From positions 11,430,174 to 11,494,173 of the forward strand of contig MU054693.1 in the NCBI GenBank assembly GCA_013239625.1: 64,000 nt of DNA. The letters are read 5' to 3'. Of this stretch, positions 41,288-44,039 are shown piece by piece (the first letter of the stretch is position 1; each line of letters starts with the position of its first letter). The notes beneath the pieces were generated by a model. It was not told the origin of the DNA and made no database searches. It worked only from the letters and a program-made list of their open reading frames with translations. A program made the position numbers and the translations under genes. The DNA comes from Lama guanicoe (Eukaryota).

Positions 41288-41405
41288 TCTGCTACCATAC
41301 ATCCCAGTTTCCCCAGGATGGTCTCAGTTTATGCCTCTGGTCCTGATGTAATTACCAATAGTGCCCTTTCTCATTCTTTGGATGATAAACGATATAGTCA
41401 GCCTG
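41288..41405. mobile_element. MER94-like hAT-Blackjack MITE
   Basis: 'ccatacatcccagtttccccaggatggtctcagtttatgcct...gtaattaccaatagtgcccttt'. Confidence 0.6.
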
Positions 41406-41895
41406 TCCAAAGTACAGGGCACCCTGCTGGGTGTGGTAGTTACTTGACGAATCCTAGTTTTTCTCTTCTTTATTAGGTTGCTAGTCTTCTACTGTGAATG
41501 CTTACATCCATTTTTAAAGGGACAGGTGACGCAGTTTTCTTTTTCCTTCTTTCTATGGGACAAAGTGGACACTAGTTTTCCTGCGTTCAACTAAGAAAAC
41601 AGTACTGCAATGTTAAGAAAAATCAATGATGAAGGGGCTAGTAGACATAGACAAACCAAGGCAACAACATTTGGGAATATCATAAGAAAGCCCCTACACC
41701 TTATCACTGCCTCTTGAAGAAGAAATGTTTTACCTTCTTTGCAGGGCAGCGGCAAGACCCAAATGCGTCAATCGGTATGAAAATGAGGTACTAGACATTA
41801 CCTTATTTTCAACGGATAGCAACTATCCACAGTTGGAAAAATAACTAGAAGAAAAAAATGCAAAACTGCAGCATGTATAGGCACATAGCTCTCTC

Positions 41896-42170
41896 GTCAG
41901 GGCCGTGCATTTAAGGGCAAGGGGAAAGGAGGACAATCACACAACCAGTAAGTGACAGTGGCAGAATTAGAACCCTGGCTAGTGGAGGGGAAAGGTGCTG
42001 ATGGAAGCTTAATGTTGGTGTGATCAGGGGATGGAGCTTTCTGGAGCTTGGTTTCCAGATGTTGGCTTAAATCAGGAGCTTTTAAGTTGTGTTCTGCAGA
42101 ATCACAGGGGTTCCCTTGGAGGACCCCCCCACACACCAACCATGAGGTTCTGGTTGCATGTATCTATTTC
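41896..42170 (-). repeat. Left arm of a long inverted repeat (inverted copy of 43125-43405)
   Basis: Base-by-base comparison: 41903-42127 is the exact reverse complement of 43174-43398 (225 bp); differences occur only at the edges. Confidence 0.98.
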
Positions 42171-42409
42171 TTCCAAGCCTGAGAAATGCAGGGAATTATT
42201 AAAATGTCTACCACCATGATAACTCAAATCAATCGGCAACAGTGGTCAAATTTTGTTGCATCAACATCCCTGATGGGAAGCTGGCACCAATGCCAGGGTG
42301 GCAGCTGATCTGCATGTCTATTTACATAAATTTGCATTGGCACGATGTTAAAAAATAAATGCTGATTATTACGGAAAGTGGCTCTCCCCCAGACTAAGTC
42401 ATCTCAACA

Positions 42410-42640
42410 GCGCAGCAGTGAAGAGCACAGGCCCTGCAATCTGGCTGTTACTTTCTATTTGCATGACCTTGAATAGGTTATGATCTTGTTATATTGTTTC
42501 TTATCTGGAACTGGGAATAATAAGAACACCACCTACTACAGAGGGGTGGTGCAAAGACTGAGTGAGTTCATGTGTATGAAGGACTTAGGGCAGTGCCTGG
42601 CCTATTAAGGGCTCAGATATCAGCTACTGTTATTATAGTA
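42410..42640 (+). mobile_element. MIR SINE (within the IR spacer)
   Basis: 'gtgaagagcacaggcc...gcatgaccttgaataggtta...gtttcttatctggaactgggaataataa...cagtgcctggc'. Confidence 0.75.
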
Positions 42641-42753
42641 GAGCCTGTTTTGTCTCCCACCACCGACCTTTGTAACAAGGCCTCTGTTTTCTTCCATCTG
42701 TAAATCATACAAGTTGGAAATTTGGACCTGGGAGGGAATCTCAGAACATCTAA

Positions 42754-43228
42754 TCGGTCACTTTCAAACTTTTATTTTATTCCTTTTAAAATAACCATGG
42801 AACACGTTTTGAAAATGAAAGCTTATGTGGAAACCCAGCATGGGGGGCCATATAGCATTGTGGTTAAGAAAATGTGCTTTGCAGACAGACAGGTCTGATT
42901 TCCAGTTCCGGCAGAGCTGCCTATTAGCCTTGTGACTCAGGGCAAATGATTTACCTTGGCTTTAAGCCTCCATTTCACAAAGTGTAAAATAGCAGTAGTA
43001 ATTGTAAATATTTCATAAGGTTATTATGAAGCTAAATGACTTCATACCTATTGAGTGTTTAGTGCAATGCCTGGCACATGATAAGGACCCAATAATTATG
43101 TTAACTCTTGAGATTTTAATATTTGAAATAGATACAAGCCGAGCCAGAGAACCAGAACCTCATGGTTGGTGGTGGGGTCCTCCAAGGGAACCCCTGTGAT
43201 TCTGCAGAACACAACTTAAAAGCTCCTG
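42754..43228 (+). mobile_element. MER117-like hAT-Charlie element split by a MIR; its 3' part lies in the right IR arm
   Basis: 5' part 'ctttcaaactttt...catggaacacgttttgaaaatgaaagcttatgtggaaacccag'; 3' part 'gaaatagatacaagccgagc...cccctgtgattctgcagaacacaacttaaaagctcctg'; loose TSD-like flanks atctaatc/atttaagc. Confidence 0.55.
42845..43105 (+). mobile_element. MIR SINE (within the IR spacer)
   Basis: 'tatagcattgtggttaagaaaatgtgctttgcagacagacagg...gtgcaatgcctggcacatgataag'. Confidence 0.8.
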
Positions 43229-43405
43229 ATTTAAGCCAACATCTGGAAACCAAGCTCCAGAAAGCTCCATCCCCTGATCACACCAACATTAAGCTTCCAT
43301 CAGCACCTTTCCCCTCCACTAGCCAGGGTTCTAATTCTGCCACTGTCACTTACTGGTTGTGTGATTGTCCTCCTTTCCCCTTGCCCTTAAATGCACGGTC
43401 CTGAC
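43125..43405 (+). repeat. Right arm of the long inverted repeat (probable ancestral copy)
   Basis: Reverse complement of 41896-42170; contiguous with the MER117-like element that begins in the spacer. Confidence 0.98.
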
Positions 43406-44039
43406 ACAGCCTTTTTGGTTTAAACACCTTTTTCCAGACCCTATTAAGCTAAGCAAAAGTGTGGCATCCCCTGCAGTTGGCTCCCAATGGGGCAAAAGTG
43501 TCCTGAACTTGCACTTCTAACATCTCCTGCTCCCTTCCGGAGCCTTCAACAGCTCACAGCCAGAGGGGAAATGAGTCATTTTGTTAAAAATAAAAACACT
43601 ACCATCTTCTCTCTAATGGCTTTGTTCATGACCAGTGCAGGCTGGCACTGATGTGCATTCCGAGCAGCCAGGGACAGCCAGTGGGCAGCCCGGGAAGCTG
43701 GCCTACCTGAAACCACAGCTCTCTCATCGCCTCCGCTTTGCTGAATCTCCAGGATCCAGCCATCCCTACCTTGGCTGGGATGTGAGTGATGTGGGGGCAT
43801 GGATGACCTTAGCATGGGGTGGGCAGAATGGCTAGGTTCCAGAAGAGAAAGGCAGTGCTGGACCCAGGAGTCATTCAGTTAAGGGATAGAGGTTAACATT
43901 CATAGCCCACAAAGAGCTGGTCCAACCTCTTTGTGTTGCTGAGACCCAGAAATGGAAGAGCCTTATCTAGGATGACTTAGCTGAGAGTGGGAGAAGCCAG
44001 ACAAGGATTCAGGGCTCCTGTCTATAGCAATTAAAACTA

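Follow-up and report, generated by a model that had tools for sequence, protein, structure and literature searches.

How can the two arms of an inverted repeat remain identical, letter for letter, over most of their length while their margins differ? The question is raised by a repeat of about 280 bp in a stretch of 64,000 nucleotides from Lama guanicoe (contig MU054693.1, positions 11,430,174 to 11,494,173), here called the window, whose numbering is used throughout. The answer that we favour, with a probability of roughly 0.55, is an old two-copy inverted duplication, derived from its right arm, in which arm-to-arm gene conversion has kept the core identical.

Geometry of the repeat and its presence in sequencing runs

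The repeat consists of the following parts:

41896-42170, plus strand: left arm, 275 bp; likely the derived copy, judged at the inner edge (repeat-profile score 2.4 bits, p 0.43)
43125-43405, plus strand: right arm, 281 bp; likely the parent copy (repeat-profile score 10.0 bits, p 0.015)
41903-42127, plus strand: perfect core, left copy, 225 bp
43174-43398, plus strand: perfect core, right copy, 225 bp
42171-43124, no strand: spacer, 954 bp, old repeats for the most part
41896-41902, plus strand: outer edge, a 6-bp match and then one substitution at 41902
42128-42170, plus strand: ragged inner edge, with one substitution next to a 4-nt indel, 22 matching bp, one substitution next to a 10-nt deletion, and 12 matching bp
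42171-42193, plus strand: left-side-only stretch of 23 nt between the arm and the 15-mer
42194-42208, plus strand: 13/15 match to 43110-43124 (p about 0.001)

The arms are mutually reverse-complementary and the cores pair with zero mismatches on the main diagonal, bounded by mismatches at 41902 (outer) and 42128 (inner). Every arm-to-arm difference is confined to the edges and none lies in the core, which has 49.8% GC and a single CpG. Upon realignment, the coordinates, the mismatch-free core and the edge-only differences reported in a first-pass annotation of this DNA proved exact, as did its finer description of the edges (the 4-nt indel, a 3-versus-13-nt replacement and the 12-bp match). 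A search of the 2.05-Gb genome with the arm, which passes over very common words, returned two matches, both at the locus. In the 664 kb around it, with partners at most 10 kb apart, the next longest perfect inverted run measures 32 bp, and the other two of the three local inverted pairs are 78-83% alike. DNA folding prediction places both arms, together with part of the 15-mer, in one stem; such a predicted fold is to be expected for inverted arms and carries no in-cell meaning.

A rival reading is an assembly artefact, or a core that appears identical through assembly or polishing having merged the two arms. Of the 24 runs listed, 20 contain 0.91-0.96 of the words sampled from 41500-43800; they come from 7 studies and carry 6 organism labels. 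These word shares suggest a difference of only about 0.1-0.3% between the holders and the window, and the best-holding run may be the source of the assembly. Among the matches listed, the run search returned only near-identical holders, and an exact 23-mer scan of metagenome contigs for outgroup copies found 0.

Contigs of four runs (X15, X4, X10 and X12) were compared with 41400-42051. Their cover reaches no further than 41932, short of most of the core and of the inner junctions; this shortfall keeps an artefact in play but carries no evidence of its own. In X15 and X4, however, two separate contigs end at 41932, 30 bases beyond the marker at 41902, and they arrive from opposite flanks. The first enters from the left flank and has no other letters over 533 bp; the second has the right flank as its loose end and shows a single deviating letter, which fits the right-arm allele at 41902. 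Both outer junctions are present in these two of the four runs, while X10 has the left flank only and X12 has no matching contig, so that neither bears on the junctions; the left flank is without other letters over 470-533 bp in three of the four. The first-pass annotation had held that a single arm in long reads would expose an artefact; at the outer junctions, two arms are what these runs contain, and we consider an artefact very improbable indeed. The two contigs have similar depths (22.4/19.4 in X15, 8.37/8.3 in X4), and no empty allele was seen in either run as judged by contig depth, which is a weak guide only. In X10, the left-flank contig ends at 41869, 27 bases short of the arm, where X15 and X4 continue; this stop may be a junction-side variant or a filter effect.

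Repeat content and direction of copying

The arms had been described as carrying pieces of ancient MER117/MIR-like DNA. Profiles of local repeats locate the following elements:

41936-41980, minus strand: MIR-like fragment in the left core (profile, E 3e-6 in a 2.6-kb search)
42438-42615, plus strand: first MIR-like element in the spacer (MIR-like profile)
42764-42843, plus strand: 5' half of a presumably MER117-like MITE-like element (E 8e-9)
42876-43095, plus strand: almost complete MIR-like element, interrupting the MITE-like one (E 1e-34; the profile was seeded with it)
43119-43229, plus strand: 3' half of the MITE-like element, which begins in the spacer and reaches the right arm (scores of 10.0 bits, p 0.015, at 43119 and of 15.9 bits, p 0.0003, from 9 copies, at 43191-43229)

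The MIR-like profile, built from 420 local copies, detects one 45-bp fragment per arm besides the two plus-strand elements of the spacer. The MITE-like family, about 200 bp long, was rebuilt from 33 of 69 fetched genome pattern hits (100 hits, control 23), the remaining 36 being discarded as poor members. The MIR fragments and the MITE-like family are thus borne out by profiles, while MIR and MER117 are names that we assume or take from the first-pass annotation. In composition the arms are mixed, with a MIR-like piece, one half of a MITE-like element and DNA that no family accounts for. A pair of transposon terminal inverted repeats (TIRs) or of young transposable elements, which had already been argued against, is out in view of this patchwork and of the two genome copies only.

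The split MITE-like element also bears on which arm came first. In other copies of the family the search motif is followed by 30 nt that here turn up at 43119, past the MIR-like element and entering the right arm, and the 3' end of the family lies at 43191-43229; the same matrix on the left arm reaches only the score listed above. Because the element runs on across their boundary, the spacer likely passes without a break into the right arm. As far as the sequence comparison goes, the right arm would likely be the parent at the inner edge, and the 10-nt deletion likely the derived state, located in the left arm. This polarity is read from ungapped matrices, one of them modest (p 0.015; real-copy median 4.9 bits) and one drawn from 9 motif-picked copies. 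A gapped MITE profile missed the 3' half, and support for the polarity is therefore moderate; a joined test gave the spacer half only, and nothing in three of four test sequences. We infer the copying direction from the inner edge only: at the outer edge, the flanks could not be told apart with a MIR 3'-end profile (p 0.50-0.84).

About 190 bp of the spacer (42209-42400) match no repeat and contain, by eye, words that we take to be octamer-like and forkhead-like. This stretch could be a candidate regulatory element within a potentially invertible segment.

Decay at the arm edges and its possible causes

Going inward from the core, the matching blocks shrink stepwise (225, 22, 12 and 13/15), each step being bounded by an indel. 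The inner-edge substitution and 4-nt indel sit within a C/CA run, and the 3-versus-13-nt replacement would most simply be a 10-nt deletion plus one substitution. The 13/15 match, offered by the first-pass annotation as a possibility, exceeds chance expectation at search widths of 60-200 nt, both against shuffles (p = 0.0006-0.0018) and against genomic windows (p = 0.0004-0.0012). The 15-mer may be either what decay has left of the duplicate's end or a microhomeology that served for priming, and the 23 nt beside it either a later insertion or ancestral sequence of the landing site; no template for them was found locally. Decay is lopsided, with 7 bp at the outer side versus about 80 bp at the inner side, and no deeper homology was detected past the edges within 300 bp on either side.

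The clustering of differences at the edges rejects uniform decay of the arms. Under uniform decay, a clean run of 225 bp has a probability of 0.005 with 4 events in 275 bp, 0.001 with 5 events and 0.0002 with 7 events in 290 bp. Substitutions occupy 5 of the 61 edge columns and none of the 225 core columns (Fisher p 0.0004), or 3 of 46 edge columns when the 15-mer is left out (Fisher p 0.005), the boundaries between edge and core having been set after the fact.

In the history that we favour, about 280 bp of old intergenic DNA would have been copied in inverted orientation, with the right arm as source, through a template switch during replication or repair. Later arm-to-arm gene conversion would then keep the 225-bp core identical, while indels build up at the edges, outside conversion. 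Edge-only differences favour conversion, since raised edge divergence is its published signature: in Drosophila genes, edges are more diverged than the middle (PMC2588116). The locus has such a high-identity middle with edges of lower identity, the pattern used to recognise concerted evolution. The duplicates described by Osada and Innan 2008 (PMC2588116) share with it an identical middle, diverged edges and a shrinking identifiable block; they are, however, Drosophila gene duplicates dated by orthologues, whereas here we deal with an undated, non-coding inverted pair of 280 bp whose decay is almost solely at the inner edge. Large indels are reported to disrupt pairing, and conversion to be higher at short distance (PMC3924837). 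The mean human non-allelic conversion tract is 250 bp (10.1101/135152), and the closeness of the 225-bp core to this figure counts for conversion. We infer an age above what the core suggests.

Several observations weigh on the other side. Conversion is slow on average, at 2.5e-7 per base per generation, and has a small average effect that fades as the copies diverge (10.1101/135152), which counts against it. The precedent for edge decay comes from Drosophila genes and not from short mammalian inverted repeats, which makes the parallel an imperfect one. With the holders diverging by 0.1-0.3%, the probability of a clean core in the absence of conversion is about 0.5-0.64; at a minimum age set by such close holders, conversion is not needed. 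Moreover, indels make up 3 of about 8 edge events, one of them in the slippage-prone C/CA run. This share exceeds what we would expect from neutral ageing, and edges so rich in indels count against conversion. Finally, an outer edge of only 7 bp with nothing homologous beyond it resembles a sharp junction, which again argues against conversion.

An alternative that we regard as possible, at less than even odds, is that a template switch made the duplicate recently, leaving a messy junction, and that no conversion followed. A nascent strand would fold back at the pre-existing 13/15 inverted match with a 23-nt loop, slip several times in the first 45 nt, copy 225 nt cleanly and return via a 6-of-7 microhomeology at the outer end. 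Such an event would by itself account for the 15-mer, for the 23 nt and for an outer edge of 7 bp, and a clean core is expected as long as the arms diverge by at most 0.5% (p at least 0.32). Local inverted duplications are a common class attributed to replication errors (PMC4617611), and template switches are known to create inverted repeats, often flanked by indels, from far shorter fragments (PMC5453318). In the four-point model of the latter work a single event likewise yields an inverted repeat that encloses a spacer and is edged by indels; it was made for clusters of tens of bases, as against a fragment of 280 bp and a jump of about 1.5 kb here. Microinversions of 17-33 nt are a small-scale analogue (PMC8755829). 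What speaks against a young switch is the density of errors that it demands: point mutations beside replicative junctions number about 2 in 15 kb (PMC4352052), far too sparse for four events in 43 bp at birth. For the 23 nt, too, no template was found, the best shared word being 10 bp, and the similar contig depths of X15 and X4 give no hint of an empty allele. The first-pass annotation had preferred conversion. Its premise stands, the differences being too clustered for uniform decay; conversion itself is no more than the likelier cause, and a young template switch is also compatible with the clean core.

In comparison with known systems, the closest likeness is to the local inverted duplications of Sudmant et al. 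2015 (PMC4617611), which are shorter than 1 kb, inverted, at most 5 kb apart and free of signs of retrotransposition. They account for 54% of 229 resolved human inversion sites, nearly all being less than 1 kb long and within 5 kb of the other copy. The present arms, of 275/281 bp, are inverted around 954 bp in two genome copies, and by eye no poly-A tail or target-site duplication is visible at the left-arm ends. By size and spacing, the locus would accordingly read as a further example of this class, whose members are polymorphic human variants with no decayed edges described in the passages concerned; at our locus no empty allele was seen in the four runs. The mammalian intergenic inverted duplicates of Chen et al. 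2017 (PMC5398296) are similar in having two copies, an intergenic position and a spacer below 1 kb; a minority of them are expressed (7.8% in human, 5.7% in mouse). Among the papers listed on ASTN2/TLR4 inversions, camel or alpaca inversions and concerted evolution of short inverted repeats, none on this locus was found.

Genomic setting and orientation of the spacer

The repeat is intergenic, between TLR4 and an astrotactin gene. TLR4 is recognised, by match to solved structures, in a 778-codon LRR-TIR frame 142-144 kb to the left. On the other side, a first exon of signal-peptide-like sequence is situated in a CpG island at about 116,480 in window numbering (L022:2480-2926), some 73 kb downstream of the repeat, and a later frame matches the Pfam Astrotactin 1/2 N-terminal family. 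From exon sequence and neighbourhood, we take this gene to be ASTN2 rather than ASTN1. Its first exon has Gly/Ala/Thr repeat tracts and no Pfam match. Rfam gave 0 matches at gathering score in the 64-kb window, and a crude finder proposed 17 exon candidates there, none with a Pfam match and none in the spacer.

Recombination between the cores would flip the spacer. This has a stronger form, a recurrently flipping cassette in which core crossovers invert the 954-bp spacer, both orientations segregate and astrotactin regulation 73 kb away is possibly altered. It is compatible with the conversion history and does not exclude it; we nevertheless hold it to be quite unlikely. Human inversions between near-identical repeats recur (PMC3961182, PMC6748972), the more frequently the higher the ratio of repeat to inversion length (PMC6748972), which is about 0.29 here, and a class with short repeats of at most 500 bp is recognised (PMC6044046). 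These human inversions arising through non-allelic homologous recombination (NAHR) resemble the locus in that near-identical inverted repeats surround a short segment. Their repeats, however, range from 654 bp to 24 kb and both orientations were genotyped, whereas the present arm measures 275 bp and falls below the smallest flanking repeat (654 bp) among the 24 validated human cases (PMC6748972). In addition, inversions at a Y palindrome are reported to be rare relative to conversion (PMC3723533), and the spacer contains mostly old repeats and neither an Rfam match nor an exon candidate.

The lopsided decay at the edges points towards a broader conjecture, for which we would offer only long odds: mammalian inverted repeats of 250-550 bp might form a widespread class homogenised via a fold-back hairpin rather than by break-induced conversion, perfect outward, decaying on the loop side and flipping their spacers recurrently, with a segregating 1-kb inversion upstream of astrotactin as the local instance.

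Taken alone, the repeat is of little weight: it is probably selectively neutral, a DNA-repair scar in a gene-free interval. If arm-to-arm conversion is true, it becomes a compact natural test of the minimum length at which mammalian inverted repeats undergo concerted evolution. It comes with built-in phase markers, 41902 outside and several indels inside, so that one long read would reveal the orientation of the spacer. It also indicates that near-100% arm identity is unsafe for dating such repeats.

Two further duplications were observed to the left of the window. The first is a head-to-tail direct duplication of 2,140 bp with 99.7% identity and a 3-bp gap, situated 47,036-42,756 bases left of window position 0 (contig about 11,383,100-11,387,400), either a tandem duplication of very recent date or an error of the assembly. 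The second, a 1.4-kb inverted pair of 94.9% identity whose copies are 41.5 kb apart (124,166 and 79,790 bases left of window position 0), overlaps a reading frame that we take to be LINE-1-like, and probably represents two young LINE copies.
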